DNA of 64,000 nt from an uncultured Gammaproteobacteria bacterium (lineage in GTDB: Bacteria; Patescibacteriota; Patescibacteriia; CAIXNZ01), in NCBI GenBank assembly GCA_964590345.1, contig CAZPVP010000002.1:9945-73944 (forward strand), given 5' to 3'. Positions 24,530-45,980 of the stretch are shown here, one piece after another. Each line of letters begins with the position of its first letter. The first letter of the stretch is position 1. Both the position numbers and the translations under genes were made by a program. The notes beneath the pieces are model-generated. The model made no database searches. It had not been told where the DNA came from and saw only the letters and a list, made by a program, of their open reading frames with translations.

Positions 24530-25141
24530 TTAAACAACGGCAAATTTGCGAATAACAGCCCGAACAACTCCCTGAACCATCACATTTTTAGCAAAAATAG
24601 GCTTCATGGTAGAATTGGCCGGCTGCAGCCTGACGCGATTGGCTTCTTTGTAAAACTTTTTTAACGTCGCAAAAGTATTATCCAGCAAAGCGACTACCAC
24701 CTGGCCGTTTTGCGGATTTTCATTTTCTTCAACAATCACATAATCGCCATCGTAAATCCCCTCTTCAATCATTGATTCTCCTTTAACTTTTAAAACATAA
24801 GACTTGGCTTCATCTTTAACAAAATCTGCCGGCACAGCAATTTTCTCCTTATTTTCCACGGCCTCAATAGGTTCACCAGCCGTAATTAACCCGGCCAAGC
24901 TCAAAAAAATCGCGTCTGCCCTTTCATTTTCAACAATTTCTATTGATCTGGCTTCATTAGGATCTGTTTTTAAATAACCTTTGTTTTGCAAAGCTTGGAC
25001 ATGCTCACAAACTGTGGCTGTTGAAGACAAGCCAAAATGCTGGCCTATCTCCCGATAACTTGGGGCATAACCATTATCTTCGATAAATTGATTTATAAAA
25101 TCTAATATTTCTTTTTGGCGTTTTGTTAAATTGTCACCCAT
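24530..25141 (-). CDS. lexA: LexA repressor
   Basis: N-terminal wHTH (LTKRQKEILDFI...GYAPSYREIG) and a C-terminal S24 peptidase domain (VKGESMIEEGIYDGDYVIV). Confidence 0.85.
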   Translation of the reverse strand: MGDNLTKRQKEILDFINQFIEDNGYAPSYREIGQHFGLSSTATVCEHVQALQNKGYLKTDPNEARSIEIVENERADAIFLSLAGLITAGEPIEAVENKEKIAVPADFVKDEAKSYVLKVKGESMIEEGIYDGDYVIVEENENPQNGQVVVALLDNTFATLKKFYKEANRVRLQPANSTMKPIFAKNVMVQGVVRAVIRKFAVV

Positions 25142-25793: not shown

Positions 25794-26143
25794 TTAAATC
25801 TCAAAATGTTTTTTTAAATATTGCTTAATCTGATTCAGAACAGATTGATCAGCTCGACCAATTTTTTTAATTAAACGGGAATAATCTAATGATGCTAAGC
25901 AATAAACTTTAATTATAGAATCAGATTTTAAGCAATTAGAAGAATCAGCAGCAATCAAAATATCATCAGCTAATTTATTTTCCCTAACTGAAGTTAAAGG
26001 GATAACTGTCACTAAATTAGATTTACATAACTGATCATTTGCCTCTATGACAATTGCCGGACGTCTGCCTTGATATTCATGCCCTACACTGGGATCAAAA
26101 TCAGTCCAAATAATATCGCCTTACTTTAATTTACCTTTTAAAT
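25794..26143 (-). pseudogene. MazF/PemK-family toxin gene with an in-frame TAA at codon 9
   Basis: The ATG overlaps the antitoxin stop (ATGA) and is followed by MNLKGKLK then TAA. Downstream, in the same frame, is GDIIWTDFDPSVGHEYQGRRPAIVIEAND...VTVIPLTS, which matches the MazF core. No canonical start follows the stop. Confidence 0.6.
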
Positions 26144-26989
26144 TCATAAATTTTCATAATAATCATATTCTTCTTTTGATATCGGACCTAATTCTTTCAA
26201 TATATCTTTGCCTGCTGCGTTTTGCCACTCAGCCCAGTGGTCTGCTTGAGCATAAGGAGCTGTGCGATCATAAACCAAATAATAAGGAATTATTTCTTTT
26301 TCTTTGGCAATTTTCCATGGGGTATCTTCATGCACATAATCTTCAATCTGCTTGGCATTCATATCTGACAAATTATTTATAACTTTATCAATCAATTTAA
26401 TTTCTTCAGCTTTTTTAAAAATAGACAAATCAGGATCAACCAAAGAAATATATCTTTTTTGTGGCATGCCATGATATGTCTGACTAATAATTTTTAATTC
26501 ATCATTTTTAACCATTTGTTCAATAACCGAATTATAATCTTTTAAGCACGGTACCGGACCGAACTGCAATTTGATATAATTCATGTTTGTTACTGGCTTT
26601 CCCAAAATTTCAAAAGCATCAAAATCAATAAAATAAAGCAGTTTATACAAAACAGTCTCACCCAAATTTGGTTTACCGCCGCACTTTTGTAAAATATACA
26701 AAATCACATTTTTCAATTTATATTGATCAAACTTGAATACTTGACTCTGTTTTTTATTAGCCTTTTTTTCAACTTTATTTTTTTCATCAATCAGCAAATA
26801 ATCAACTGAAGTTCCAAATACTTGGGCAATTTTAGCCAGCTCCAAAGAATCAATACTTCTTTTACTGGCTTCAATTTGCGCTACTGCTACACGAGAAAGG
26901 CCGATTTTTGAGGCTAATTCAGCCTGACTCATATCAAAATCAAGCCTTAATTTTTTAATTTTTTGGGCCAATTTTTTTTGACTTAACAT
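26144..26989 (-). CDS. antitoxin: N-terminal XRE-type HTH fused to a DUF4065/Panacea domain
   Basis: HTH (LAQKIKKLRLDFDMSQAELASKIGLSRVAV). The C-terminal region (LYKLLYFIDFDAFEILGKP) is DUF4065-like. The gene is translationally coupled to the downstream MazF-like ORF. Confidence 0.6.
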   Translation of the reverse strand: MLSQKKLAQKIKKLRLDFDMSQAELASKIGLSRVAVAQIEASKRSIDSLELAKIAQVFGTSVDYLLIDEKNKVEKKANKKQSQVFKFDQYKLKNVILYILQKCGGKPNLGETVLYKLLYFIDFDAFEILGKPVTNMNYIKLQFGPVPCLKDYNSVIEQMVKNDELKIISQTYHGMPQKRYISLVDPDLSIFKKAEEIKLIDKVINNLSDMNAKQIEDYVHEDTPWKIAKEKEIIPYYLVYDRTAPYAQADHWAEWQNAAGKDILKELGPISKEEYDYYENL

Positions 26990-27216: not shown

Positions 27217-28071
27217 TTAAGCATAACATCTTAAAAATTCCCTACATATTTCCGGTGTCGTAATAGAAACTTTAAAATTATTTTCCTGCAAATCCACAGT
27301 ATGTTCTTTTATGTGATATTCTATATTTCTTTCTAAACAAAATTTAATTACTTTATAAGTTAATTCATTATAATAAGACTTGTAATTAGAAAAATCACTG
27401 GTATTACTATTATAGTTCCATTTGCCAAAAACAATTTTGTCCACAAATGAAACTTTTTCCAAAATATCCTCAATATTTTGCTTTATATTAAATTTCTCTA
27501 ACATATTAGGCGTAGGATATGGTTCTATACTTACCCAAGTTTTCAGGTCATTATTATGCAAATTCTTCAAAGATTTTATTCTTTCTCTAACTTTTGCCGC
27601 ATATGGCTCATGTATTTTTTGAAATTTATCTGATAAAGAAATTATTGTAGAACCATACTCATTTATATCTTTATAAATATTTTTATTAAACAAATCTTTG
27701 GGATAAACACCTTTACTAATTGTTATTACTTTAATATTATCTTTATTCAATCTTTTGATTACATTTAAAGTCAAATTGTGAATCTCGGGTTGTTTATACA
27801 TAAAGGGGTCAGTAGCAAAAGACAGATAAACTGATTTAATCTGATTTTTATATTTGGGAATTTCTTTTTCTAATAATTCCAATGCATTGACAACAATTTT
27901 AGGCTGGCGCCATTCATTATAATTTTTTATAACACCGCATCTTTTTTTAAGCATCATAGCATAGCAAGGATAAGTACAGCCATGCACGCAACCTTCAGCA
28001 TGATTAATACAAAAATCAGCGTATTCAACACCGCTCTTGTAAAGCAAGGTTTTCCTTGTTATTTTTTGCAT
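27217..28071 (-). CDS. Cys-motif protein (CVHGCTYPCYA; radical-SAM-like/SplB-like)
   Basis: N-terminal GCVHGCTYPCYAM with Cx3Cx3C spacing and a CYA ending, resembling DNA-repair photolyase-like and three-Cys-motif families. It is the adjacent partner of the TcmP-like gene. Confidence 0.4.
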   Translation of the reverse strand: MQKITRKTLLYKSGVEYADFCINHAEGCVHGCTYPCYAMMLKKRCGVIKNYNEWRQPKIVVNALELLEKEIPKYKNQIKSVYLSFATDPFMYKQPEIHNLTLNVIKRLNKDNIKVITISKGVYPKDLFNKNIYKDINEYGSTIISLSDKFQKIHEPYAAKVRERIKSLKNLHNNDLKTWVSIEPYPTPNMLEKFNIKQNIEDILEKVSFVDKIVFGKWNYNSNTSDFSNYKSYYNELTYKVIKFCLERNIEYHIKEHTVDLQENNFKVSITTPEICREFLRCYA

Positions 28072-28110: not shown

Positions 28111-29034
28111 TTAAATATCAAATGAGCCCTGCAACATTTTGTCTTGCTCTTTCTTCGGTAAACATTGGAAAAGAGTACCATCCAAAGTAACTTTTTTATA
28201 AATATCCTCAATTATGCTTTTTGCTCCAGTATTTCTAGAAAGAAAAATAAGATAATATTTATTCCTACCCTTATTATAACAAATATCAATTATTTTAGCT
28301 CCAAGTTCGTATTTTTTAGCCACTTTATCATTATAATCAGCAAATATATTCAAATATATTTTTAAATTTTCTTTTTCTTCGCTAGTTAAATTTTTCCAAT
28401 CCTCTCCAAAAAAATCTTGAATTCTTCTTAAATTGCCAATAGCCATTTTTTGTATATCAATAGGTAAATTTTTTTTGCATTTCTTCCCGAAAGCAAGACA
28501 TCTTTCAACTCCCTTACAAATATAATTTATTAAAAATTCCTTTGCGACATTTGGGATATTAAGCATTTTCACTAGCATTTCTCTATAAATATTTATACCA
28601 GCAGGATCTATAAAAAAGAATATAGGAGCTTTACCAGATATAATCGGCAAAATATCATCTATTTTTTTATTTATGTCTCCGTTAAAACATTTAACATAAA
28701 AACCCCTTTTAATATATGGGCTAACAAATTTTTCTAAATCTTGAAAAGCATTTTTATCTTTTTCAACAAAAATACATTTTAAATCTTTATTATATTTTTC
28801 CTTGACCAACTTGGCTATTTCTAAAGCAATTAAGGGCGAACCAAGCACTGAATTTTTAACGCCCTCATTATTATACTTTCCTCTACCTACGAAACAATCA
28901 ATAAAATACATTTCTTGACACCATTTTTGTGCTGCTAATATTTTTGCCCATGCGGATAAATAATCATTTAAAATTTTAAGTTTTGTTTTTGTCTGTGTCT
29001 TATTAGTTATATCCCAAAAATCTTTTTTCTGCAT
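28111..29034 (-). CDS. TcmP-like partner protein (three-Cys-motif partner family resemblance)
   Basis: 307 aa with an N-terminal ...TKLKILNDYLSAWAKILA pattern. The assignment is from recalled family characteristics and needs HMM confirmation. Confidence 0.35.
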   Translation of the reverse strand: MQKKDFWDITNKTQTKTKLKILNDYLSAWAKILAAQKWCQEMYFIDCFVGRGKYNNEGVKNSVLGSPLIALEIAKLVKEKYNKDLKCIFVEKDKNAFQDLEKFVSPYIKRGFYVKCFNGDINKKIDDILPIISGKAPIFFFIDPAGINIYREMLVKMLNIPNVAKEFLINYICKGVERCLAFGKKCKKNLPIDIQKMAIGNLRRIQDFFGEDWKNLTSEEKENLKIYLNIFADYNDKVAKKYELGAKIIDICYNKGRNKYYLIFLSRNTGAKSIIEDIYKKVTLDGTLFQCLPKKEQDKMLQGSFDI

Positions 29035-29088
29035 AAAATATTATTAAATTTAATTTATGCTTTTATTGTGTCCCGAACAAAAACCGAA

Positions 29089-29226
29089 TACAAGCAAACT
29101 TATCCACAGACTCACTCTCCCTCAATTATTTTAACATCCTCTTCCCCCAACCCATACAACTTATACACTGCTTGATCTATCTCATAATCCACTGCCCTTA
29201 TCCTATCCGCATTTTTCTCGCGGGAT
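29089..29226 (-). pseudogene. orphan 3'-terminal fragment of a Type IIG/RM gene
   Basis: It translates to KTPQSREKNADRIRAVDYEIDQAVYKLYGLGEEDVKIIEGE-stop. That is about 75% identical at DNA level to the true C-terminus of the Type IIG gene at 31037-31160 (…KTSESREKNKTKIEAVDYEIDQEVYKLYNLTPEEIKVVEGK-stop). No upstream ORF exists. Confidence 0.55.
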
Positions 29227-29239
29227 TGAGGGGTTTTAT

Positions 29240-29989
29240 TTAATTTTTAATAGTATTTATTATCGATTTATAAATAATATACAATCCTATTATAAAAACA
29301 CATATTCCCCATATTAACATTAAAGCACCCCCCATATTTATTTTTTCTTTAGTTATGAATCCAATATCTGTTAGGGCTAAAAATACTACATTGATTATGA
29401 TAAATAAAATATTTGTGCTAAAAACAAATTTTAAATTATTTTTAAAATTAAATAATTCATCAAAAAAATCATTATATCTTTTTATATTTCTAAAAATTTC
29501 ATTAGCATAATATGCATATAAATTAGATTTTCCTGCTCGTAAATCTATCAGGTGTGCCTCACTATAGCCACATGCATCCTTTAATGCATTTTCAAGATTA
29601 ATTATTTTTATTTGATTAGCTTGTATTTTTGTCTTTATATCATGACCAATTTTTTTTGAATTTTCATAAATATCATATACTTGCTGATATCTATCTTTAT
29701 ATTCAAATAAAGCTAAATATATTTTAACAAGTCTATTATAATAATCCTCTTTTTCTTTTATTAATTTTCCATAAATCAAAACAAAAAAAGTTGCGCTCAA
29801 AGCAATTATCGCACCTAAAGTTTGTGCCATAGCACTAAATAAATATCTAAAAGTATCAACATTGATTATCTGATAGCAATAAACGATAAAAGCTAAAAGA
29901 ATAATTGCAATAATAGATATGAAAATTATTATTGCCACAAAGAATCCTCGTTTAAATTCCTTACTCATATGATAAAAAATCCAGTTCAT
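29240..29989 (-). CDS. hypothetical membrane protein (N-terminal TM plus two C-terminal TMs)
   Basis: 249 aa. It sits between the RM-gene fragment and the 347-aa gene. Its RBS lies within the conserved ...ATTGAGGGGAG junction sequence. Confidence 0.45.
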   Translation of the reverse strand: MNWIFYHMSKEFKRGFFVAIIIFISIIAIILLAFIVYCYQIINVDTFRYLFSAMAQTLGAIIALSATFFVLIYGKLIKEKEDYYNRLVKIYLALFEYKDRYQQVYDIYENSKKIGHDIKTKIQANQIKIINLENALKDACGYSEAHLIDLRAGKSNLYAYYANEIFRNIKRYNDFFDELFNFKNNLKFVFSTNILFIIINVVFLALTDIGFITKEKINMGGALMLIWGICVFIIGLYIIYKSIINTIKN

Positions 29990-30006
29990 ATTTTATCTCC
30001 CCTCAA

Positions 30007-31050
30007 TTATTTTAATCTTTTTACCCGCCCGAAAATTCTATAACCCGAAACAGTTCCCGTATCTTTTATAAAATTCAGATGATGCCTGATAACAAATTGC
30101 AGATTATCCATGCATTTTATGGCTTGTTTTTTGTAGGCATCTAACTCATAAAGATCGTGCTTAGGATGAACCAAATTGCTTGCAGTGGTTGAGATTTCGT
30201 TTACCTTTTTTGCCGCAATTTTACTTATTGGATACTTACCTCGAAATAGAGAATAGCTACGACAAGTTTCCGCCAAATGCTCTATGCTTTTTAGTTTTTT
30301 GTTATCTTTAGCTTGCTTGTAGATATCAAATCCCCTCCCAACTTTTAGGAGAATTCGTATAAGTGCCTGCTCTGTGGCTGTACGACAAACAACAATAGAG
30401 GAATAGTAATACCCGAGGACATAAAGTTCCTGTGCATGGGAGAAAAGATCGAAATAATTACCATCGTAGACCATCACACCTCGATACCTTTGTGACACTG
30501 TTATGTGTCTTTTCCACATTGCCGGTAATTCTTTCTCAAGCCCCGTTCTCCATCCCTGCAGGAATTCACTTTTTTCTTGCCTACGCATAGTCAATGGTAG
30601 ATAACCGCCACCACGAACTTTATGCGCAGTAGTGATTTTAAATTTATTTTCAAGGTCTTTTATTTTTTTAAAATCAGCATGCCAAATCCACCAATCTTTA
30701 TTAAAACGTACTACTAAAATTGTAGCCGATTTCTTACCCAGAGTTGGATCATGCCACTTAACATTTTTAATTTCGTGCAAATCTACATTGATGGGTTTGC
30801 CAGCATTATTCGGATTAAGCTTCCTGTTTTTAAACTCAAGCATTACCTGTACCGCGTTGTCGAGAAAAATACGATGACTTCCGTCGGATAAAATTTCAAT
30901 TCCGGCGACACTAAAATCTTTCAGACCCAGTCGTTTTAATTCAGGCTCAATATATTCTTTTATGGCTTTATTGACTGCCTGGCCAAAGCTTTGATTCTTT
31001 TTTACGTTTTCGTCTAGAATAAAGATTGCCATATTTTTATTTCCCCTCAA
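30007..31050 (-). CDS. hypothetical protein, compositionally distinct (higher GC)
   Basis: 347 aa. Its start overlaps the Type IIG stop by 14 bp. No recognisable motif. Confidence 0.45.
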   Translation of the reverse strand: MRGNKNMAIFILDENVKKNQSFGQAVNKAIKEYIEPELKRLGLKDFSVAGIEILSDGSHRIFLDNAVQVMLEFKNRKLNPNNAGKPINVDLHEIKNVKWHDPTLGKKSATILVVRFNKDWWIWHADFKKIKDLENKFKITTAHKVRGGGYLPLTMRRQEKSEFLQGWRTGLEKELPAMWKRHITVSQRYRGVMVYDGNYFDLFSHAQELYVLGYYYSSIVVCRTATEQALIRILLKVGRGFDIYKQAKDNKKLKSIEHLAETCRSYSLFRGKYPISKIAAKKVNEISTTASNLVHPKHDLYELDAYKKQAIKCMDNLQFVIRHHLNFIKDTGTVSGYRIFGRVKRLK

Positions 31051-34000
31051 CCACCTTAATCTCCTCAGGCGTCAAATTATACAACTTATAAACCTCCTGA
31101 TCAATTTCATAATCCACTGCCTCAATCTTTGTCTTGTTTTTCTCACGGGATTCAGAGGTTTTATTTAATTTAAGCATTTCATCAACAAGTTTGATTATAT
31201 TTTTACTTATCTTTTCATCAGGATCCTTGATAATTGGTAATTCCTTAAGGTATTCTATTGTTATTTGTGTTGTCAATTTCATACCTAGATTATAGGTGTA
31301 TTCATAATAAAAATTCATTAATTCTGAATTAAGAATCGCTAAAATTAGTTTTGGATTATAATCTTTTATACCAAAAATTGAATATACTGTGTTAAAAGCC
31401 AAAACATCTTTATCTTGTGTGACAAATGTACCCCCGGGTCTAGTCGCTATCCTTTTAATAAATATTCTATCTTTATTAAATGCCTCTCTTTTATAATCAA
31501 CACCTTTTAGAGACTCCTGAATATAATAAAAATCATTAATATAATATTTTTTCAATTCTTTACCCGAAATACATTTTATTTTATATTTATCTGTTTCTAT
31601 ATCAGAACTAATACATATACCTTTTTTATTTTTAATTAATCTCTTGCAATTCTTGCAATAATTACTAGCTTTTAGATTATAGTACTTCTCGCTCAATTCA
31701 TTATATACTCCACAACTATCACATTTTATCAAATTTGTTTTTTGACCTAATTCTATACCTCGTTTAATATCTGCTATTTCTTTAAGTTTTACACTAACCT
31801 TGTTAATTGTATTTAATAAATCTTGTTTCTCTTTGGTAATATCAAAAGAAAAAGCTTGAACTGGATTTTTTGAAAAAATATTCTGATTAATTGCGTGACT
31901 GGATACTAAATTACCATCAAAAATCTTTTCAATTATTGTCAGTGCTTTGGATTTAGATTTTGAGATTATGGGGCAGATACAATCAGATGCTACCCCAGGA
32001 AATTTACCGAAATCAATAAATTTAAATAATTGCCAATCATCTAAAATTTTACTTCTTATTATTTTATAAGAAGTATTTTTTATAAAAACTTTTGGAATTA
32101 ATATCCCCATTAATCCATTTGGATTTGTAATATTCACTGATTCTAAAACAAACGGTGCGAAAAGGTTTAAATTTTTAGTATCGATAATATAAGCATTGTT
32201 AATATAATCGGTAATTTCAATAGGCATTTTAGAACTCCATGGTGGATTACCGATCACCGCATCAAATCCGCCGTCCTTAAAAATCTCGCAAAAAGCCACT
32301 GAATAATTAAAAGGCTTTATTTTTTCCAAGTTTTTAAAATATTGTTTCAGGCCATCGTTTAACTTGCCATTAATCAATGTTTCAAATTTTTTAATTTCAA
32401 CCAGTAAATCTTTTTTCTCATCATTGGCTTCAGCTTGATAAAATTTTTCTTTCAGTTCGGTTAATTTAGCAATTTCTGTTTTATAATCATCAAACAAATT
32501 AAGATTCTGTTCTTTTTCTTTAAGCTTTTCTCCGCCAATTAAAGAATTACCGCAACGGATATTTAAATTTAAATTAGGCAAAAGATGCTTACCTTTTAAT
32601 TCTGCAGGGTTAACGCCTTCCAAAGCTTTGATCATTAAATTAAGCTTGGTAATTTCAATCGCTTTAGGGTCAAGATCAACACCAAAAAGATTTTTTTGCA
32701 AAACTTTTTTCCTAAAATCAAAACTCAAAAGCCCGCCTTCTTTGGAAACTTCCAAATATTTATTATAAATCTCTTCAAAAGCGCGAATTAAAAAAGAACC
32801 AGAACCACATGCCGGATCCAAAACTTTTATTTTTTCTACATCTTCAACTGTTTTGCATTTTTTTAATAATTCCCCAACAGTATTTTTAACTATGTAATCA
32901 ACAATATAAGCGGGCGTATAATAAATGCCTTGGGATTTACGTTTTGATTTTTGCTTTTGCTTTAGAGTGTCTTCCCTCTTAATATTGCCTTTGGCAATTT
33001 CACCTAAATAATTCTCATAAACTTCGCCGATTATATGGACACTTAATTTGCTAAAATCAATTTTTTTAAGCTCATTAATAATCTTTATAATTATTTCATC
33101 ATTAATTTTCAATTCATCAGCATCATTAGGTTCAAAAAGTTCAGTGTTGAATTTTTCGTCCATTGCTCTAAAAATTGACTTTAATTCTTCGTATTTTAAC
33201 TGCTTGGACTGCAAGACTGAATCCAAATAATCCTGTGAAATAATATTCCTGTCGCTGCATAAATCAATAAAAATCAAACGATCAATAATTTTCTGGGACA
33301 TTAATTCTGAATCATACTTAGGATAATTTTTAATAATAAAAGCACGCAATTTGGCGCGCCAATTTTTAATTTTATTAAAAAAATCTTTTTTAATCTTATC
33401 CTGTTCAAGATCCAATTGTTCAGGATAATAAATCGGATCAGAATCAATAATGCCGTTTTTTCTAGTTAATTCTGATTTTGATAATTGGCTTAAAAAATTC
33501 AAGCCTTCATCTGACAATAAATCAATATAATATCTTTTATCAGCATTATCCCATAATAAATCATGAAACGCATATTTTCTTTCTTTATATAAACGTCCGT
33601 GCTGGACACTGTATAAACGCCACTCAATAAAATTGGTTAAAACTCCCCAATACAAACCTTCACCGTGGCAATAATTAAATAATTGCTGGGTAAACGGCTT
33701 GTTGCCATAAGAGCCGTCAAGTTTGTCTTTACTAGAAGCATCTTTAGATTCAATCACTAAAAGCTTAGAGCCGGTATCGGATTTTAAAATAATATCAGGA
33801 TTTTTACCGGTTTTAACATCCTGTGCAGTATCCAAAACCCAATTAGAACTATCCCAGCCTAATATTTTAAGCAATTCAATAGTAAAACTGGTTTGAATGT
33901 CTTGTTCGCGTTTTGACCAGCCGTCCTGCGTCTTAAATTTATCAACCAATGCCTGAATCTGCTTTTTTAATTTCGCCTGTTCCAATTCAAGATTTGGCGT

Positions 34001-34057
34001 GTTTAATATTATTTTCTTTTTATCCATAAAGATAGTTGTAATAACCACTATTGACAA
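31037..34057 (-). CDS. Type IIG restriction-modification enzyme (MmeI/Eco57I-like: PD-ExK nuclease plus gamma-class N6-adenine MTase plus TRD)
   Basis: PD...ExK nuclease motif at the N-terminus (NPDIILKSDTGSKLLVIESKD). MTase motif I VLDPACGSGSFL and motif IV VIGNPPWSS. A Zn-ribbon CDSCG...CKNC lies in the C-terminal target-recognition region. 1006 aa. Confidence 0.85.
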   Translation of the reverse strand: MSIVVITTIFMDKKKIILNTPNLELEQAKLKKQIQALVDKFKTQDGWSKREQDIQTSFTIELLKILGWDSSNWVLDTAQDVKTGKNPDIILKSDTGSKLLVIESKDASSKDKLDGSYGNKPFTQQLFNYCHGEGLYWGVLTNFIEWRLYSVQHGRLYKERKYAFHDLLWDNADKRYYIDLLSDEGLNFLSQLSKSELTRKNGIIDSDPIYYPEQLDLEQDKIKKDFFNKIKNWRAKLRAFIIKNYPKYDSELMSQKIIDRLIFIDLCSDRNIISQDYLDSVLQSKQLKYEELKSIFRAMDEKFNTELFEPNDADELKINDEIIIKIINELKKIDFSKLSVHIIGEVYENYLGEIAKGNIKREDTLKQKQKSKRKSQGIYYTPAYIVDYIVKNTVGELLKKCKTVEDVEKIKVLDPACGSGSFLIRAFEEIYNKYLEVSKEGGLLSFDFRKKVLQKNLFGVDLDPKAIEITKLNLMIKALEGVNPAELKGKHLLPNLNLNIRCGNSLIGGEKLKEKEQNLNLFDDYKTEIAKLTELKEKFYQAEANDEKKDLLVEIKKFETLINGKLNDGLKQYFKNLEKIKPFNYSVAFCEIFKDGGFDAVIGNPPWSSKMPIEITDYINNAYIIDTKNLNLFAPFVLESVNITNPNGLMGILIPKVFIKNTSYKIIRSKILDDWQLFKFIDFGKFPGVASDCICPIISKSKSKALTIIEKIFDGNLVSSHAINQNIFSKNPVQAFSFDITKEKQDLLNTINKVSVKLKEIADIKRGIELGQKTNLIKCDSCGVYNELSEKYYNLKASNYCKNCKRLIKNKKGICISSDIETDKYKIKCISGKELKKYYINDFYYIQESLKGVDYKREAFNKDRIFIKRIATRPGGTFVTQDKDVLAFNTVYSIFGIKDYNPKLILAILNSELMNFYYEYTYNLGMKLTTQITIEYLKELPIIKDPDEKISKNIIKLVDEMLKLNKTSESREKNKTKIEAVDYEIDQEVYKLYNLTPEEIKVVEGK

Positions 34058-34144: not shown

Positions 34145-34760
34145 CTATTTAAAGAGAAAATTTTCAGAGATTATTTTCTCTTTTATTATATTGTAATAAT
34201 CATAATCATTTATCTCGTATTTCCTAAATATTGCCCAAGAAATAAAATCTACAGCTTGAAGACTTTTTTCATTATATGCTTTACTAATTCTAATATTAAC
34301 TAAATCTTGTTTCCAGTTCTTTACGCCACCATTTAAATAATTAAGAAAATTTTTATTTAAAAACTTATTAGTTTCTCGCTGATGAAAACAAATATCAATA
34401 TTATTCCATTCTTCAAGAACCTTTGTTTTATGCAATCTATCCAATAAAATATTAGTAACATAATTATATAAAACTTGTTTTTGATCTCTCAGTCTGGTGT
34501 GTACTTTTGTTTTATTTAAAATTACCGATAGTATCTGAATTCAATCCTTGCAAAACTCTTTTTCTGGTAATTTCTTTTTCATGATAGGCATGTAAAATAG
34601 AAACTTTACAATATTTTTTTCTAAGTCCTTTATGCACCTTTTTTAACACACTTTTCCATTTTTCTATGCTTTAAAGTCAAAACAATGGTTACAATAAACC
34701 ATTTACTTGATTTTTTACTAAAACCTAAATCACCGCTTTCATCAAAAAATGTTTTTAACA
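34145..34760 (-). pseudogene. DUF3800-family gene disrupted by at least two frameshifts
   Basis: The N-terminal piece MFMLKTFFDESGDLGFS carries the DUF3800 DESG signature and stops after about 50 codons. The sequence continues in two other frames into the 99-aa ORF 34145-34444. An intact paralog lies at 43256-44029. Confidence 0.6.
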
Positions 34761-34886
34761 TAAACATATATTAAAATTACTATTATTTTACCTTTATTAT
34801 CAGCCAAAAGTCAATTAAACTGCGGCAAGCAAAAAAGCCGGCAAAAAACCGACTTATTTGCTCCCCTCTGTTTTATTAAAATACGA

Positions 34887-39045: not shown

Positions 39046-40374
39046 TTATCTTTTCTCAATATCCTCTTCAACTTTTCTCTTTGCTTCTTCTAATAGTTCT
39101 TTGGCTTCCCAACGTAATTTAAATGATTCCCCTACCATTTTAGCGATTTTTTGTTGAGTTTTGAGAGGTAAAATTGGAATCAAAGTATTTTCAACCTGAT
39201 CCGGCCGCCAGTGATTAATAATTGACCCGCCTGCATCTCGATCAATTTGCATCTGGCAAATCAAAGAATTTAAAACCAAAGTTAAATATTGAGGATTTAA
39301 ATTTTTATCTTTAACCTTTAATCGCAAAATTCCGCCGGAAATAATGCCTTCCTTATCTTCATTCAAATAAATTGCAATGCCAGGTGTAGCATCTTTGCTT
39401 AATAAAATTTCGCCTTTTTGCGGCTGATATTTATCTTTTAATTCGCCGTATAATTTATCACTTAAAAATTGCTGATTATTATCATTAATACCAAATTTTG
39501 ACATATTGGAAACACGAATAAAAGGCTTGCCTTCTTCCTGATAAACATCGCTCCCGGACTCAATCCCTTTTAGAGATTCAACTAAATTACCCAACTTTTC
39601 TTTTTTAACTTTAATTTTACTTAAAATTTTCTCAAACTTAGGCTGGAAATATTCAGCATCAATCCGCCCTGCTTGTTGGCAGTCTTTTAAAGTAGTGGCA
39701 TAAGCCAAATCATCTTCAAGCTTTAAATCTTTAATACTCAATTCTTCAAGCAATAAAGCTTCGGCTTGAGAGTAAAAGAATTTGGATTTTGCTATTTTCT
39801 CAAAAACTTCTTTTACTATTTTTTTGATGTTTTGTTCATTTTTAACATAAAAAGGCAAATTCATTATATCTTCTTCCGTAACTGCCGGATACATACTAGC
39901 TGATGTCAATCTATCTAAAAGTGTTATTACATGATTTGTTTTTAAATAAGCAAATAAATACTCTGAAGAAACTTTTTGTGGCCATATATCACAAAATCCA
40001 CTTGAAGCGACAAATCCATCATCCTCTTTTTGTATTAAAGAAACAGCATTTCTATTAGGTCTAACAGTTGAAACTAACACATCGCCACTCTTAACAACTT
40101 TTTGCGCTCTATCTGGGGCGTCTTCTCCCATTATTTGTTTAGCATCAAAAGTCCCGTCATTTAAATTAATTTCAGAAATTTCAATATAATTAAAAATTTC
40201 TCCCTTTTTGGGTTTGAATCTTCTAGTAACATTTTTAGTATAATTATTTAATTTCTTGTCGGTTAATTTATTTAATTTTTTAATCAAATCTAAATACTCC
40301 GGCTGATAATATTCAGCATCTAGTCTTAAAGCACCTTCAAGATAATTTTTTTTAATTATTGAATAAGTTGACAT
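39046..40374 (-). CDS. hsdS: restriction-modification specificity (S) subunit (HsdS-like / Type IIB B-subunit-like)
   Basis: 442 aa with two target-recognition domains and conserved central and terminal repeats (LDAEYYQPEY... IDAEYFQPKF). Confidence 0.85.
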   Translation of the reverse strand: MSTYSIIKKNYLEGALRLDAEYYQPEYLDLIKKLNKLTDKKLNNYTKNVTRRFKPKKGEIFNYIEISEINLNDGTFDAKQIMGEDAPDRAQKVVKSGDVLVSTVRPNRNAVSLIQKEDDGFVASSGFCDIWPQKVSSEYLFAYLKTNHVITLLDRLTSASMYPAVTEEDIMNLPFYVKNEQNIKKIVKEVFEKIAKSKFFYSQAEALLLEELSIKDLKLEDDLAYATTLKDCQQAGRIDAEYFQPKFEKILSKIKVKKEKLGNLVESLKGIESGSDVYQEEGKPFIRVSNMSKFGINDNNQQFLSDKLYGELKDKYQPQKGEILLSKDATPGIAIYLNEDKEGIISGGILRLKVKDKNLNPQYLTLVLNSLICQMQIDRDAGGSIINHWRPDQVENTLIPILPLKTQQKIAKMVGESFKLRWEAKELLEEAKRKVEEDIEKR

Positions 40375-40463
40375 AATTTATTATTTAGTCCTCTTGTGGT
40401 GAGCTTGTCGAACCATCAAGTTGAGATTTTTTGATTATTGAGTAGGTCATTTATTTACTATAA

Positions 40464-40973
40464 TTATGGATATATTTTATAAATATTTTTATTATATACG
40501 AGATAAATTCCTAAAAATCCAGTTCCTTTAAAAAATTTTTTTCTTAAATCCTTTAAATCTTTTATTTCTTTACTAGATAATTTTCCAACTATCCACCAAC
40601 CATCTAAAAGTAAAATTAAGTCTCTTTTTAATTCAATTGAATATTTTTCTGATTTTTGTTTAATAGGTTCAATGATCCCTTTCTCAATCCGAGGATCTGG
40701 TTCTGTTCTATTATAAACCCTTAAAACTTCCCCTTTTGTTGCGAATTTTTCTCGCGCATCATAATCTGCAACGGTAATTTGCATCTTTAAAGTGTGTTCC
40801 GGATTAGATTTTTTATGAGCTAAAGCATCGATACCTTCATCTATTGATGGGTGATAAGGTTCACAGTAATCTTCGTTATGATTTTTATTAATATGTTCAA
40901 TAAAAATATTCGCAATTTTCAATTCATCATCTATATTTCCCAGTTGGGGTTTTTTGATTATTGAGTAGGTCAT
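40464..40973 (-). CDS. hypothetical protein whose first 8 codons duplicate the hsdS start region
   Basis: 169 aa. The sequence ATGACCTACTCAATAATCAAAAAA occurs again, with about 33 bp of upstream flank, at 40424-40450. Confidence 0.4.
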   Translation of the reverse strand: MTYSIIKKPQLGNIDDELKIANIFIEHINKNHNEDYCEPYHPSIDEGIDALAHKKSNPEHTLKMQITVADYDAREKFATKGEVLRVYNRTEPDPRIEKGIIEPIKQKSEKYSIELKRDLILLLDGWWIVGKLSSKEIKDLKDLRKKFFKGTGFLGIYLVYNKNIYKIYP

Positions 40974-41782
40974 AATTGTTTAGCATTATCTTTTGATTGA
41001 TCTTTTATCTTCGTTAATTTTTTATGTTGTTCCTGAAAATCATCACTTTCAATAATTTCTTGTAAAAGCGCTGTTGAATGAACTAAGGCTATCCCTGTAT
41101 TTTCTGTAAAAACTGATCTTATCTCACCAGTTTGTACACTAATTGCCTCATCTTTGTAAGGTACATATGCGCCTATAATTCCTGATAATTTTATTTCAAC
41201 TGGACCTCCTATTTGAACAGAATTATCTTTTATTTTAATTGGTGTTGGTAATAAAAAAACAGGACTTCCGCTATTGCCAGGAAAAGCGAACCCATCCATA
41301 AAAAATGTTTTATCATAATTAATTCTAGAAACTACTCCCTTTCGAATAATCGGATTAATAGCGGCATCTGTTTTTAATTCATTAATTCCTGGCTGATAAG
41401 ACAGGAAAAATAAATCGACTAATTCTTGAATATCAGAAATTTTTCTAATGAATAGATCATTGGGGATAAATTTAGATTTATCACTAGGAGCTAAAGGAAA
41501 TGGTAATAAGGCAATGTCCACTTTATTATCTCCATGTTTTTTCCATGACCATCCTTGCCTTAATATTTCAGTTATTGCTTTATAATTTATGCCAAAATTA
41601 TTAGAATTTAAAAAAATATACATTTTTTCATAATTTTTTTCTACTACATGTTTAGCTGTAGCTAAATAAAAGACATCGTCTACTTGTATTAAGAATCCAG
41701 TTCCAGAAAAAACAGGCTCACTATTATTCATGTATCCTAAAAAAATAGTACTTTCTTTAATTTGAGATATTAATTGTTTCAT
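40970..41782 (-). CDS. trypsin-like (S1/Trypsin_2) serine peptidase
   Basis: Catalytic-triad candidates: H in LATAKHVV, D in VDIALL, S in FPGNSGSPVF (GDSGGP-like). Confidence 0.65.
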   Translation of the reverse strand: MKQLISQIKESTIFLGYMNNSEPVFSGTGFLIQVDDVFYLATAKHVVEKNYEKMYIFLNSNNFGINYKAITEILRQGWSWKKHGDNKVDIALLPFPLAPSDKSKFIPNDLFIRKISDIQELVDLFFLSYQPGINELKTDAAINPIIRKGVVSRINYDKTFFMDGFAFPGNSGSPVFLLPTPIKIKDNSVQIGGPVEIKLSGIIGAYVPYKDEAISVQTGEIRSVFTENTGIALVHSTALLQEIIESDDFQEQHKKLTKIKDQSKDNAKQL

Positions 41783-41795
41783 AATATGTAATTTA

Positions 41796-42350
41796 TTAAT
41801 TAAACTTCTTTTTTAAGTCTAAAATTAAATTTTCACAAGCAAAATCTATCTGTCTAAATTCGGCAATATAGCCTTCTTTATAATTTTTAGAAGTACTAAT
41901 TTCATCAAGTAAAGTATCTAATCCTTTTAAATTATCATTTCCTTTTGATATTTCTTTACATTTCTCAATCGCCTTTTTAGTTAAAATTATAAAATTATCT
42001 TTATGATTATAATATTGAGATATATGCCCAATCCTATTATGTCGAATTAGTAAAAAATCTTTTGAATATTCATTTAATTTATCTATTTCTGTTTTTTTCA
42101 AACAATCAAATTCATATAAAGACCATGTTCCGTTCCTTGAATCAAAAAATGTAGATAAAATCAAACAAATAGTCCTGGTTAAGCTATCCAATACCATTTG
42201 AAAAAAATGATTATAATTATTATTGTTAATATTTACATTTACTGCAATTTTATCATAAATAACCAATATAGAATTTAATCTACTTAATTCTTTATATAAA
42301 TACCCCCAAATTTCATATTCAGTATTATTTATTTTCTTGCCTTTTAGCAT
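41796..42350 (-). CDS. hypothetical protein with RHNRIGH (Rx4-6H, HEPN-like) motif
   Basis: 184 aa. It contains a single Rx5H motif. This is a weak assignment. Confidence 0.3.
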   Translation of the reverse strand: MLKGKKINNTEYEIWGYLYKELSRLNSILVIYDKIAVNVNINNNNYNHFFQMVLDSLTRTICLILSTFFDSRNGTWSLYEFDCLKKTEIDKLNEYSKDFLLIRHNRIGHISQYYNHKDNFIILTKKAIEKCKEISKGNDNLKGLDTLLDEISTSKNYKEGYIAEFRQIDFACENLILDLKKKFN

Positions 42351-42479
42351 AGAATATGATTAATTTACTTAATTTTGATTATCCACAGATATATTGACAA
42401 AATTTGACAATATATGAAAAATTGGTATAATGACAATGTAGTGCAAGCTACCCTCATCTATAGGATAATAGATATGTGT

Positions 42480-43136
42480 TTATACCTCCGCCTTAACGGG
42501 CGGAGTGTTTTGATTCTCAAATTTTAAAAATTGCGCTAAAGTTTCAGCCGGAATAAACTTATCTGCAACTGTTTCAAGTTCAGTACTCATTCTATTTCGG
42601 GTACTAACCACTATTATTTTTTTCTTTTTAGTCTTTAAATATGCAAGTAGTCCCCCAAAATCACTATCTCCTGAAAACAGCATTACAGTATCATATTTAT
42701 GAATTTTAACTAGCATATCTTGAGTTATTTCTACATCAAAATTGCATTTAGGAAATTTGCCTAAAAATTTTCCATCTTCATCATAATGAGGCACCATTTT
42801 AATTTCCTTGGTCCTTTTGGTAAAACCTGCTTTTTCTGCTTTTTCAACTCTATAAAGAGATTTTCCATGTTTTACATTTAATTCGTGATCTTTGGATAAA
42901 TTAGGATATTTTGCATAATGGCCATAATAGAAAAATTTTTTTGAGGGTTTAACCCATTCGCACAAGTTAGCTAGCTTCTCAATATCTATTTCCCAACAAA
43001 GTTTGTATTTATTTTCCTCCGGCCAAAATTCTTTTGCCCAAGGCCTAACATTTCCAAAATCTACGAAAACATAAATATTTTCAAATTCACCGGGTTTGAA
43101 AAAATAATAATTGCATTTAAAATCGTTTATTTCCAT
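42480..43136 (-). CDS. NYN/LabA-like PIN-fold ribonuclease domain protein
   Basis: VFVDFGNV ... MLFSGDSDFGGLLAYLK ... KIIVVS pattern of the NYN domain. Confidence 0.65.
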   Translation of the reverse strand: MEINDFKCNYYFFKPGEFENIYVFVDFGNVRPWAKEFWPEENKYKLCWEIDIEKLANLCEWVKPSKKFFYYGHYAKYPNLSKDHELNVKHGKSLYRVEKAEKAGFTKRTKEIKMVPHYDEDGKFLGKFPKCNFDVEITQDMLVKIHKYDTVMLFSGDSDFGGLLAYLKTKKKKIIVVSTRNRMSTELETVADKFIPAETLAQFLKFENQNTPPVKAEV

Positions 43137-43240
43137 GCAAATAAAATTTGTGATTACTGATTAAATTTACTTAATTTTGCTTATCCACACTGGATATTGA
43201 CAAAACATGTGAATTTGCTATAATAATTACAGAATATTAG

Positions 43241-43282
43241 AAAAAGGCGTCGGCTCTATTGGCCGATGGCCTTTTTCATTTT
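43241..43282 (-). terminator. terminator hairpin at the 3' end of the DUF3800 gene
   Basis: On the minus strand, AAAAAGGCCATCGGC-loop-GCCGACGCCTTTTT followed by CTAATATTCT. Confidence 0.45.
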
Positions 43283-44029
43283 AGCTAAAAAACCATCCGT
43301 CTTATGATGGTGAATATTAAAAGCGAAATTTCTAAAATCCTTAGTTAAAATGTTTACTCCCAAATTTTCTTTGATTTTTTTGACAAATTCCTGCTTTACA
43401 GATGATGGAGCAGAAATTATGCCATCTTTCAATAGTAATTCGTAATTAATTGCACCAGTTATAAGATCGGTTAATTGCAATAAATCATTTGTTCGTGAAT
43501 CAAGACGACAAACACCGGCGATTGCCAAACGATCAAACTTCTTATTTAAATTATTTTTAATATTGACTTCAAATTTACTCCTTTTGGGTGTAATTAAATT
43601 ATCGGCTAAAACAATTAAAACTTCGTTTTTTCTTAAATTTCCTTCCAAAAGATGCTGGGCAACTCTTTCATAAGCTAAAAAAGGATCACTATGAAATTCA
43701 TTTCTGAAATATTTGCTCCTTTTATCTATTGAATATGAGGTATAAAAAATACTTCTGGTACTAAATAAAGCTTCCAGAGCCAACAAATAAACATTTAATT
43801 TAGCTTTATTTAAATTATTAAATTTTAATTCCCACCAAAAATGATTGCATTCTCTAATATAACGCATTTTTTGCTGTAAATAATAAGGCTGGGAACATTT
43901 AATCATGCCTACTGTGAAATATGGCTGGGTTTCAATAGATAATGCTCCTGATTCATCTAAAAAGCAAAATGGGGTCCAGATATTTTTATAATCTCCTAAT
44001 GTTAAATTGTGATTATCATTATTTTCCAT
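43256..44029 (-). CDS. DUF3800 family protein (intact copy)
   Basis: N-terminal FCFLDESG signature. 257 aa. Confidence 0.65.
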   Translation of the reverse strand: MENNDNHNLTLGDYKNIWTPFCFLDESGALSIETQPYFTVGMIKCSQPYYLQQKMRYIRECNHFWWELKFNNLNKAKLNVYLLALEALFSTRSIFYTSYSIDKRSKYFRNEFHSDPFLAYERVAQHLLEGNLRKNEVLIVLADNLITPKRSKFEVNIKNNLNKKFDRLAIAGVCRLDSRTNDLLQLTDLITGAINYELLLKDGIISAPSSVKQEFVKKIKENLGVNILTKDFRNFAFNIHHHKTDGFLAKMKKAIGQ

Positions 44030-44036
44030 ATTAAAA

Positions 44037-45980
44037 TTAAAGAAAATTTAAATTATCCTTTTTGGCAAATTTTAAAAACTCATCAGCGATTTCATCTAAA
44101 TCATGATCAATTATTTTTTTACCTTTTAAATTAACCATTTTATTGCCTTCTTCATCTTTTTTATAAACATACTCACCGGAATTATCCTTACCTGATTTTT
44201 GGGATGTTGCCATGAAAATATTATAATCTTTTTTCGGTTTTTCATTTTCTAACCATTTTTGCAAAAACAAAACAGAAGTCTTAGTACCTGTATGAGGTTT
44301 AAATGTATTAACCTGCAAGCCAACTACTGCTAATATTCTAGCTTTATCCATTAAAAATTCCCTGACTTGCTGCATATTAGTATTATTAAAAACGCCTTGC
44401 GGCAAAACAATGGCTAAACGGCCACCTGGTTTAATAATATTTAATGACCGTTCAATAAATAAAATATGGCGTTCCATTTTATTTTTTAATTTGCCTTTAT
44501 CATTTTTCGCCAATTCATATTTATTTAATAAAGATTTTTCAATTATCTCACCGGCAAAAGGCGGATTGGACAATAAAATATCAAAATTAAAATATTTAAA
44601 ATTATCTTCATTATCCTTGTCTTTGGTATAATCATTGAATTTATAAAGCCTTTGCTGTAATTCTGCCCTGGCTCTTAATTTTTCACTTTCATTACCCATC
44701 CATTCTTGGGGATTTAAAGAATTTAATTTAAAAATATGAGAGCGACCATCGCCAGCTATTAGCATTAAAGCACGGGAAATTTTGACTGATTTTTCATCAA
44801 AATCAATGCCATATAAATAACGCTGAGCATATTCTCTCATTAATTCCTTATCCATGCTTAAAAATTCTTTTTTAACATGATTCATCGTATGGATTAAAAA
44901 TCCACCAGATCCACAAGCCGGATCAATCACATATTCTGTGGTTTGCGGATTTAACATTTTAACTGCCATATCAATAACATGACGCGGTGTAAAATATTGT
45001 CCCTTTTTCCCCTTAGCAATATCCGGTAATAAATATTCAAAAGCAGAGTCAATTACATCAAGATTGGCATCAAGTAATTTTATTTTTTCAAATTCACCAA
45101 CACAAACCGACAAGTGTCCCGGATTTAAATCAATTTTTTCATATTCATTAAAAATACCAGGCCATTCTTTTTTCGCACCATCAAAAAGCTGGCTAATATG
45201 ATCATAAGTTAATTGTGGATCTTTATATTGCCTAAATAATAATTCTTTATCTTTACGCTTTTTGGCCTCTTTCTCATCATATAATTTAGCGTAAATTAAT
45301 TTAAAAATCTCATTAAAACTATCAGCACCTGATCCAGCTAAAACCAATTCTTCTAATACGCGAATAATACTAACTAAATCAAAGTCAACCTCTAAATCAC
45401 TAATCGTTAATTTTTCATCCAAAACATCTTCAATATCCTGGTCAACTCTGGGAATATCACGCAAAGTGCTCTCAAATTGATCCGGATATTTACGATATAA
45501 AATAACTTTCTCATCGCCATTAGACCAAACGCCGATTGGCGCACCTTTAGAATTAACATAAGTTTTTAATTGTTCTAAACCTTTTTTCTCATCTGGCTTT
45601 TTGAGTTCAAAAATAATTAGGGCTGTTTCTTTATCCTTATGGAAAACTATAATATCAGCCGCTTTGACATGCACTTCCCCGCCAAAATGAATATTTTGTT
45701 CAATACCGATCCGGTCTAAAGGATAACCATATATTTTGATCAATTTATAAATCCATAATTGCCGAATGATTTCTTCCGGCTTAGATATTTTTTTTTCTTC
45801 GTTCAAAATTAAAATATCCTGATTGCGCACAGGATCTTTAACATAATATTTGCCGTCTTTGGCAACGATATCTAAAACTTCAGCAATTTTTATTCCTTTA
45901 AATTCCTTAAGGCCATATTCCAATTCAGGATCTTTAAAAATTTTAGTAATTACTTGATGCGCTAATTCTTTTTTAAGCAT
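44037..45980 (-). CDS. fused PD-ExK nuclease (HsdR_N-like) plus N6-adenine DNA methyltransferase; BcgI-A-like Type IIB/IIG RM subunit
   Basis: N-terminal AADIIVF...IIFELKKPD (D-x-ExK). MTase motif I VIDPACGSGGFL and motif IV LLSNPPFAG. At 647 aa its size matches the BcgI A subunit. The cognate S subunit lies 3.7 kb downstream at 39046-40374. Confidence 0.75.
   Translation of the reverse strand: MLKKELAHQVITKIFKDPELEYGLKEFKGIKIAEVLDIVAKDGKYYVKDPVRNQDILILNEEKKISKPEEIIRQLWIYKLIKIYGYPLDRIGIEQNIHFGGEVHVKAADIIVFHKDKETALIIFELKKPDEKKGLEQLKTYVNSKGAPIGVWSNGDEKVILYRKYPDQFESTLRDIPRVDQDIEDVLDEKLTISDLEVDFDLVSIIRVLEELVLAGSGADSFNEIFKLIYAKLYDEKEAKKRKDKELLFRQYKDPQLTYDHISQLFDGAKKEWPGIFNEYEKIDLNPGHLSVCVGEFEKIKLLDANLDVIDSAFEYLLPDIAKGKKGQYFTPRHVIDMAVKMLNPQTTEYVIDPACGSGGFLIHTMNHVKKEFLSMDKELMREYAQRYLYGIDFDEKSVKISRALMLIAGDGRSHIFKLNSLNPQEWMGNESEKLRARAELQQRLYKFNDYTKDKDNEDNFKYFNFDILLSNPPFAGEIIEKSLLNKYELAKNDKGKLKNKMERHILFIERSLNIIKPGGRLAIVLPQGVFNNTNMQQVREFLMDKARILAVVGLQVNTFKPHTGTKTSVLFLQKWLENEKPKKDYNIFMATSQKSGKDNSGEYVYKKDEEGNKMVNLKGKKIIDHDLDEIADEFLKFAKKDNLNFL

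Follow-up and report, generated by a model that had tools for sequence, protein, structure and literature searches.

At least 16 clades of HEPN proteins are linked to restriction-modification (RM) systems, with PrrC as the model (Anantharaman et al. 2013, PMC3710099). Type IIG enzymes are known to exchange specificity domains between conserved flanks, and insertions with long direct repeats and without mobility genes have been described as well (Furuta, Abe and Kobayashi 2010, PMC2853133). Candidate defence genes nested in Type I RM, BREX and DISARM loci have been collected by 'guilt by embedding' (Payne et al. 2024, bioRxiv 10.1101/2024.01.29.577857); in the passages retrieved from that preprint, Type IIG is not among the surveyed host systems and scars of a gene end are not mentioned. 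A locus akin to these systems in part lies in a 64-kb window (the whole stretch of DNA analysed, to which all coordinates refer) from a Patescibacteria-like, ultra-small bacterium. There, a Type IIG RM gene is followed by a gene for a protein of 341 amino acids (aa), a gene for a 249-aa membrane protein, and an orphan version of the RM gene 3' end, called here the tail. With moderate confidence, the region is regarded as a cargo slot behind a mosaic Type IIG gene, the tail of which would act as a recombination arm gathering promoterless defence cargo, with the 341-aa protein as a candidate RM-linked HEPN effector.

Copies of the Type IIG gene end

The RM gene (31037-34027, minus strand) codes for 996 aa comprising a predicted nuclease, an N6-adenine methyltransferase and a specificity domain. 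It matches Eco57I (5e-26), N6_Mtase (4e-20), TaqI_C (1e-15) and also MmeI_Mtase in Pfam, and REase_MTase_IIG in PADLOC (8e-80, profile positions 5-520, the N-terminal part included); homologues are annotated with HSDR_N (PF04313). A gamma-class N6-adenine methyltransferase of the Eco57I/MmeI type and a C-terminal specificity domain, joined in one polypeptide, place the enzyme in Type IIG. In the family the N-terminal 600 residues are conserved, the specificity domains are unrelated, and a tail of ~50 residues is conserved again. Compared with homologue P0130, the window enzyme shows 70-96% identity for aa 1-600, 10-30% for aa 600-950 and 52% across the tail; the tails of P0131 and P0132 are 84% identical to its own, next to unrelated specificity domains, and P0145 and P0147 are 44-66% identical to it in the specificity domain but only 30% in the tail. 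Tail identity between members having unrelated specificity domains ranges from 52 to 84%. As the N-terminal part and the tail are kept and the specificity domain is exchanged, the tail is a piece of homology common to many otherwise different loci. A search for members of this RM family gave more than 4,000 hits, and the closest RM homologue is 59% identical; its locus (L064) is not syntenic with the window and carries no TcmP gene behind the RM gene, as the window does further downstream, so that the ancestral state cannot be reconstructed.

The resident tail, the final 44 codons and stop of the RM gene (31037-31171, minus strand), encodes KLNKTSESREKNKTKIEAVDYEIDQEVYKLYNLTPEEIKVVEGK-stop. 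The orphan tail (29112-29246, minus strand; 44 codons and a TGA at 29112-29114) encodes KLNKTPQSREKNADRIRAVDYEIDQAVYKLYGLGEEDVKIIEGE-stop, and at its 5' end it shares bases with the membrane gene's stop codon. A repeat search of the window pairs 29119-29246 with 31044-31171 (family D1, 128 nt, 74% identity), and blastn of the orphan against the window finds 93 nt at 79.6% (E=1.6e-18). The 44 codons of the orphan form an open frame, in which the conserved residues of RM tails are retained. A reading of this DNA made from the letters alone (the sequence-only reading) had already noticed this copy, and placed it ~20 nt off, at 29089-29226. It had also foreseen that the orphan might be the end of a broken upstream reading frame; the membrane protein encoded there aligns with its homologue through the last residue, and the orphan is separate from it.

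The sequence-only reading further took the flanking copies for duplicated modules. Repeats do flank the cargo, but the orphan shares 29 of 44 residues with the resident tail and 26-32 of 44 with other tails of the family. Being as distant from its neighbour as from the other tails, it stems from a different allele of the RM family and is no in-situ copy of the resident tail.

A third copy (repeat D11), suspected in the same reading, is a scar of 8 codons where the two cargo genes meet (29993-30016, minus strand, 24 nt); the RM frame reads IKIIEGR-stop, and the scar runs across the stop codon of the 341-aa gene. Over the 64 kb, exact matches to the 16-mer TTAAAATAATTGAGGG are limited to two positions, 29119 and 30000; chance would supply about 0.4 matches even if two mismatches were tolerated. 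A blastn search with the junction ranks the other two tails highest after the junction itself (E=0.003 each), and the remainder of the scar, TTGAGGGGAGATAAAATATG, matches the RM/341 junction. The first 10 nt double as the conserved ..RLK-stop end of the 341-aa family. By these matches the third copy is probably real, though short. The idea that the ..KRLK-stop end is itself a recombination site acting at the DNA level, or a tail in a shifted frame, was discarded, because homologues keep the R-L pair through synonymous codons (AGA/CGC/CGT/CGA and TTA/TTG/CTA).

The GAGGG(G) within each copy was proposed to serve as the Shine-Dalgarno sequence of the next gene. This holds for the RM to 341-aa and the 341-aa to membrane gene transitions, GAGGG(G) codons lying 9-10 nt before the ATG (GAG GGG at 10 nt in the resident tail, GAGGGG at 9 nt in the scar). 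It does not hold for the orphan, the GAGGG of which is no ribosome-binding site for the following TcmP gene, starting 77 nt further. GC content at third codon positions changes in steps at the tails: it is 0.275 in the N-terminal part of the RM gene, 0.174 in the specificity domain, 0.444 in the tail, 0.333 in the 341-aa gene, 0.144 in the membrane gene, 0.400 in the orphan tail and 0.198 in TcmP.

The 341-aa and membrane genes are enclosed by direct repeats of 135 nt (>30 bp), and Pfam and NCBIfam scans found no recombinase within the insert. Lack of mobility genes, and repeats far exceeding transposon target duplications, recall the insertions of Furuta, Abe and Kobayashi (2010), as the conserved flanks and swapped specificity domains recall the Type IIG alleles in the same paper. 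In contrast to those, the repeated target is here the 3' end of the RM gene, the insert is accessory cargo and not an RM unit, the two repeat copies, derived from different alleles, share only 74% identity, and scars recur as arrays.

Tails were monitored in all fetched loci by a six-frame scan with a hidden Markov model (HMM) of the 44 last residues. Besides intact RM genes, 10 orphan tails were counted in 7 distinct loci; the count includes the 8-codon scar of the window, missed by the HMM and found by repeat and DNA searches. HMM matches fall solely on the strand of the cargo genes, and all 9 orphan tails found in this way are co-oriented with their neighbours. Nine of the ten span 8-44 codons, the tenth 179. 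Most start a few nt from the preceding stop codon, or overlap it, and an ATG follows within 11 nt in 8 of the 10, the exceptions being the 44-codon orphan of the window and the orphan of L065. In the window the order is RM gene with its tail, 341-aa gene, 8-codon scar, membrane gene, 44-codon orphan. A 343-aa gene of the family sits between two tails in L003; in L009 a tail, an 802-aa gene and a second tail precede the 341-aa gene; in L065 the RM tail is followed by a 180-aa membrane/Zn-ribbon gene and another tail. L033 features a tail before a 168-aa gene, L063 a tail between mutM and a homologue of the membrane gene, and L030 a 179-codon RM fragment with its tail, then a 293-aa gene and a 343-aa gene. 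Close RM homologues carry another tightly coupled gene right behind the tail, of 252 aa in L064 and 180 aa in L065. The window and L065 share both tail types (resident ..NLTPEEI.VVE, ~88% DNA identity; orphan ..GLGEE[DE]VKI[IV]E, ~85%), although specificity domains, cargo and downstream genes all differ.

Since the arrangement of tail, gene and tail recurs in independent loci, the earlier proposal of serial insertion by recombination at a conserved gene end is a reasonable one: tail copies do mark the junctions, here and in L003, L009, L065, L063, L030 and L033, and the mechanism would be as follows. Cargo may move as a unit made of a tail piece and a gene. Homologous pairing, within either the tail or the RM body, would anchor the left end of incoming DNA, and the right end would be joined either in another tail or illegitimately, stranding a resident tail truncated at its 5' side. 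Genes directly behind the tail, starting 2-11 nt past the RM stop, would be promoterless. Two cassettes of differing origins can be proposed in the window, the tail with the 341-aa gene, and the 8-codon scar with the membrane gene; the stranded orphan would have belonged to the allele resident before, staying in place as a new specificity domain and cargo came in. The window would record at least two insertion events and a specificity-domain swap.

Plain decay could leave a similar picture, if two or three tandem Type IIG genes with their accessories had lost the RM bodies by deletion, their ends being kept as ribosome-binding sites and no special recombination being involved. Defence islands do gain and lose RM genes, orphan and resident tails have diverged as different alleles do, L030 retains a longer RM fragment (179 codons), and a start codon within 11 nt of 8 of the 10 orphan tails is what selection for translation signals could preserve. 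Random deletion should, however, give varied lengths, and 9 of the 10 remnants are no longer than 44 codons and packed against the preceding stop, which in L063 belongs to the housekeeping gene mutM; uniformly short remnants, squeezed against neighbouring stop codons, fit decay poorly. The orphan of the window supplies no ribosome-binding site, 77 nt separating it from TcmP, and the mosaic structure of RM genes is evidence that recombination uses the tail. Decay is accordingly held to be an unlikely, if credible, account.

A scan for promoters and terminators gave no excess over the shuffled background, and is uninformative. The codons for IDQEVYKLYN in the resident tail (31076-31104, minus strand) spell TTGATC-17 nt-TATAAT, a sigma-70-like arrangement ~35 nt before the 341-aa start which is not kept in the orphan tail.

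The 341-aa family and its HEPN-type domain

The gene (30007-31032, minus strand) begins 4 nt past the RM stop. Its product, listed at first as a 347-aa protein, measures 341 aa, the ATG being at 31032 and all homologues beginning with MAIF... An AF2 model built on 46 sequences (pLDDT 84) has two domains, an N-terminal alpha/beta domain (aa 1-130) and a C-terminal HEPN-fold domain (aa ~147-325) with the four-helix up-and-down bundle of the superfamily. Searched by Foldseek against the PDB, the C-terminal half finds the HEPN domains 1o3u, 2hsb and 1wol on top (probability 1.00, target-normalised TM 0.53-0.66), followed by HepT, sacsin and Csm6. The N-terminal domain, modelled on its own (pLDDT 93), has no significant match in PDB or BFVD. 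The protein has no Pfam, NCBIfam, PADLOC or PHROG match above threshold; below threshold, members of the family match DUF4145 (best E=0.0069), HEPN (0.14) and HEPN_Swt1 (0.16), and remote relatives DUF4145 (0.005), HEPN_Apea (0.009) and HepT-like (0.04) profiles, weak matches that agree with the HEPN assignment. Searching solved structures by sequence with the family profile gave chance-level matches only. The view that the cargo proteins have no recognisable domains is overturned for this one, the HEPN fold of its C-terminal half being accompanied by remote relatives with an RNxYVH motif. The architecture is modelled as an uncharacterised N-terminal domain joined to a HEPN-type effector.

When 1.84 billion representative proteins were searched with a profile, only a few full-length 341-type representatives appeared, next to two kinds of shorter proteins. 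Those of ~200 aa correspond to the C-terminal domain alone and have the canonical RNxYVH; in those of ~250 aa the N-terminal domain is joined to another small helical domain, which is HEPN-like (KNxARY, and RNKATH in one member). In the 341-aa family R217, E221 and H289 are invariant across the 46 sequences, Arg217 sitting in helix 1 (CRTAxEQ), and His289 within A[SNG]xLVH. None of the 18 aligned sequences has both arginines or neither: 10 have the helix-1 Arg without the motif Arg, and 8 the motif Arg with Gly or Ala in helix 1. On this account the catalytic Arg appears to have been relocated from the RN..H motif to helix 1, the His being retained. A PD-(D/E)xK site in the N-terminal domain (E46 ... 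E66-x-K68) was dismissed, position 66 not being conserved.

The last residues of the family (336-341, at 30007-30027) end in a near-invariant ..KRLK, with R339 and L340 invariant, and are modelled as disordered (pLDDT <50). Near-invariance in a disordered end suggests a functional C-terminal peptide, for example an interaction or degradation signal.

Homologues number 85, 47-82% identical, the full-length ones of 331-357 aa and mostly of 339-344. No relative was found in 2.9 million viral contigs, and together with the lack of a PHROG match this discards a phage origin. Most loci have a co-directional gene 2-54 nt upstream of the family member, and this preceding gene is often a restriction gene. 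In L001 the family member lies between hsdS and hsdR (hsdM..hsdS-341-hsdR), and it is probably embedded likewise in a second Type I locus; it follows a Type III-like Mod/Res pair in L002, and Type IIG genes in L015, L031, L043 and the window, and elsewhere comes behind an Mrr_cat enzyme or a YgjP-like gene. Partners in the window and most other loci are of Type IIG, Type III, Mrr or unassigned kind. Among 136 neighbouring open reading frames (ORFs) in 34 distinct loci, N6_Mtase, ResIII, N6_N4_Mtase, Helicase_C, Eco57I and TaqI_C lead the census. Downstream neighbours include no single conserved partner.

The family is close to PrrC, RloC and the RM-linked HEPN proteins (PMC3710099) in that a gene for a HEPN-fold effector lies in or right behind restriction genes, in L001 in the very position of prrC, and in that an N-terminal regulatory domain precedes a C-terminal HEPN domain; a second-line defence role has been proposed for both. 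It departs from PrrC and RloC in several respects. Pfam and NCBIfam reveal no ATPase family match, hence no N-terminal ABC-type ATPase, and the domain found in its place matches no PDB or BFVD structure; the motif Arg is missing, apparently relocated; and recovered loci and named homologues are nearly all from Patescibacteria. Since linkage extends to enzymes of Type I, IIG, III and Mrr type, direct masking by one specific RM partner, as in PrrC, is unlikely. DUF4145 (PF13643) is a further relative, a helical domain of HEPN type that frequently occurs with restriction enzymes, by fusion or by linkage. It is weakly matched by 5 family members, and its motif '..GN..aH / RN..H' resembles that of the remote relatives; all matches fall under the Pfam gathering score, and the 341-aa family differs in having A[SNG]xLVH and the helix-1 Arg. 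The protein would be a sensor-effector in which the N-terminal domain is fused to the HEPN domain. By analogy with these systems it most likely cuts RNA, stopping growth once restriction fails or is inhibited.

The HEPN domain may instead be non-catalytic, and the protein an accessory or regulator of restriction, such as a nucleic-acid or nucleotide binder, and not a toxin. The motif Arg is missing, HEPN domains without it or with nucleotide-binding roles are known (PMC3710099, Table 1), and no adjoining antitoxin is evident in the window. Invariance of R217, E221 and H289 argues against such a role, the exclusivity of the two arginines suggests a preserved active site, and fusion of the N-terminal domain to a second HEPN-like module in the ~250-aa relatives points the same way. 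A non-catalytic accessory is considered doubtful.

Three features were noted around members of the family. The one recurrent downstream neighbour, encoded in the three related loci L007 (9039-10145), L015 (9046-10176) and L025 (7046-8161), is a DUF4238 protein (368-377 aa, 80-96% identical), a possible second partner in one sublineage. In L004-L006 (6347-7822), of Giovannonibacteria type, a LexA-S24 domain fused to an N6_N4 methyltransferase adjoins a 343-aa gene. ParB_N-N6_N4 methyltransferase genes with terminase-like or serine-recombinase neighbours occur in L007 (1-2350), L011 (2109-5326) and L064 (13312-18008); with such genes near several RM/cargo loci, a prophage-like or integrative element may carry some of the copies.

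The membrane gene and the nature of the proposed cargo slot

The membrane gene (29240-29989, minus strand) lies 17 nt beyond the 341-aa gene. Its product has, by hydropathy, 4 hydrophobic segments, not the three transmembrane segments first assigned, flanking a soluble middle of ~120 aa. It has no match in Pfam, NCBIfam, PHROG or PADLOC, and a single homologue among 5.8 billion proteins, 44% identical over the full length. The homologue is encoded in L063, a contig of 1,450 nt from another metagenome, directly after mutM, with no 341-aa gene on the contig; a 15-codon orphan tail, ..NGLTQEEIKIIEGK-stop, ends 8 nt before its ATG, which is independent evidence that the membrane gene travels with a tail remnant. 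That the protein is a membrane-acting abortive-infection effector is a guess.

Many tail-cargo proteins have transmembrane segments. Genes found after tails often encode small membrane proteins with 1-4 hydrophobic segments, mutually unrelated in sequence (L064, 11865-12623; L065, 8984-9526; L033, 1811-2317; L030, 5076-5954; and 29240-29989 in the window).

The two cargo genes had been put forward as a defence or abortive-infection pair, and as a two-gene system they would have been inserted together. They are adjacent, co-directional and 17 nt apart, and both HEPN and membrane proteins are common components of abortive infection. The membrane gene is nevertheless absent from all 37 other distinct loci carrying the 341-aa gene, as the 341-aa gene is from the short contig of the membrane homologue, and in the window a tail scar divides the two. 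GC content differs as well (0.373 in the 341-aa gene, 0.225 in the membrane gene, 0.293 in the RM gene), in keeping with the shift remarked upon earlier for one of them. Never found together elsewhere and differing in GC, the genes are not a conserved pair and appear to have been acquired separately; a joint two-gene system is very improbable.

Equally improbable is a dedicated site-specific recombination site, integron-like (attC/attI), for cassette capture by a recombinase: promoterless single genes in arrays, split by conserved elements of 24-135 nt and read from upstream expression signals, do resemble integron cassettes, and serine recombinase genes lie near three loci, but RNAalifold predicts no conserved secondary structure in 15 tails (0 pairs, and no attC-like hairpin), a scan of ORFs from 19 to 50 kb in the window found no integrase or transposase, the element is the ordinary coding end of intact, functional RM genes, and remnant 5' ends differ between cargos.

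Several observations weigh against the cargo-slot and HEPN-effector interpretation. A tail lies within 1.5 kb of the 341-aa gene in 9 of 38 distinct loci (37 and the window), and most 341-aa loci have none nearby, a situation which the sequence-only reading had named as unfavourable; the gene also moves by routes other than tails. The family adjoins RM enzymes of four types (Type I, IIG, III, Mrr). The third copy is only 24 nt long, and the conserved end of the 341-aa gene accounts for part of it. No HEPN model of Pfam is matched above threshold, the Arg of the canonical Rx4-6H motif is missing from A[SNG]xLVH, the argument for its relocation rests on few clades, and the domain could be non-catalytic. 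Finally, neither a close relative of the genome nor an empty site was found for a before/after comparison, and the order of events is therefore only inferred.

The cargo-slot interpretation may be tentatively extended, with rather low confidence, to Patescibacteria at large. The last ~45 codons of Type IIG genes would be a capture site independent of recombinases, where excision and re-insertion from tail to tail yield promoterless defence arrays translated after the RM gene, and the 341-aa HEPN protein, present behind four classes of restriction enzyme, would be a general sensor of restriction failure, for example of anti-restriction proteins, and not the partner of a single enzyme.

RM families dominate the surroundings of the 341-aa gene, which PADLOC, Pfam, NCBIfam and PHROGs all fail to recognise and which bears on defence in ultra-small bacteria. 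A conserved, horizontally mobile family behind Type I, IIG, III and Mrr enzymes is a testable candidate for a second-line effector, with a HEPN active site the arginine of which seems to have moved to another helix. Tail scars are a simple sequence signature by which further promoterless cargo genes, many for membrane proteins, can be traced, and offer a route to study the movement of defence genes in genomes poor in mobile-element enzymes.

Flanking genes and a second RM locus

Genes at 24.5-35.6 kb are all on the minus strand, and in 5' to 3' order the RM gene, the 341-aa gene, the membrane gene and the orphan tail are followed by TcmP (28111-29034) and a radical-SAM gene (27217-28071; Radical_SAM 3e-07). 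TcmP matches NCBIfam TIGR04474 (tcm_partner, 5e-39) and two PADLOC-DB phage-defence-candidate models, PDC-M30A (1e-20) and PDC-M41A (5e-15). This neighbour of the orphan tail is a parallel to 'guilt by embedding', whereas the 341-aa family and the membrane protein, unlike the candidates of Payne et al. (2024), match no PADLOC model. The orphan tail may once have headed the TcmP and radical-SAM pair. Housekeeping genes flank the region, with guaA, a cofD-like gene and lexA on one side, and a DUF389 gene on the other.

Further along the same strand (stretch 25794-26989), a gene with a helix-turn-helix (HTH) and a SocA/Panacea antitoxin-type domain (26144-26989) is followed by a 72-aa ORF; in L003 an HTH-SocA gene, 38% identical to that of the window, comes after the downstream orphan tail. 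Just upstream of the RM gene, a 99-aa ORF (34145-34444, minus strand) has a weak DUF3800 match (E=0.0024), and the start of a 45-aa ORF (34630-34767, minus strand) resembles the DUF3800 N-terminus by eye only; the two may be pieces of one disrupted DUF3800 gene.

A second RM locus is found at 39046-45980 (minus strand). It consists of a 647-aa gene with HSDR_N_2, N6_Mtase and Eco57I matches and no specificity domain (44037-45980), and a separate Methylase_S gene (39046-40374). Five co-directional genes lie in between, for an intact DUF3800 protein (43256-44029, after the 647-aa gene), a NYN RNase, a weakly AbiU2-like HEPN protein, a trypsin-like peptidase and a 169-aa protein; by its gene order the locus looks like cargo embedded between a methylase and its specificity subunit. 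Two LexA-like genes are present in the window (24530-25141 and 45982-46599), each near an RM locus.

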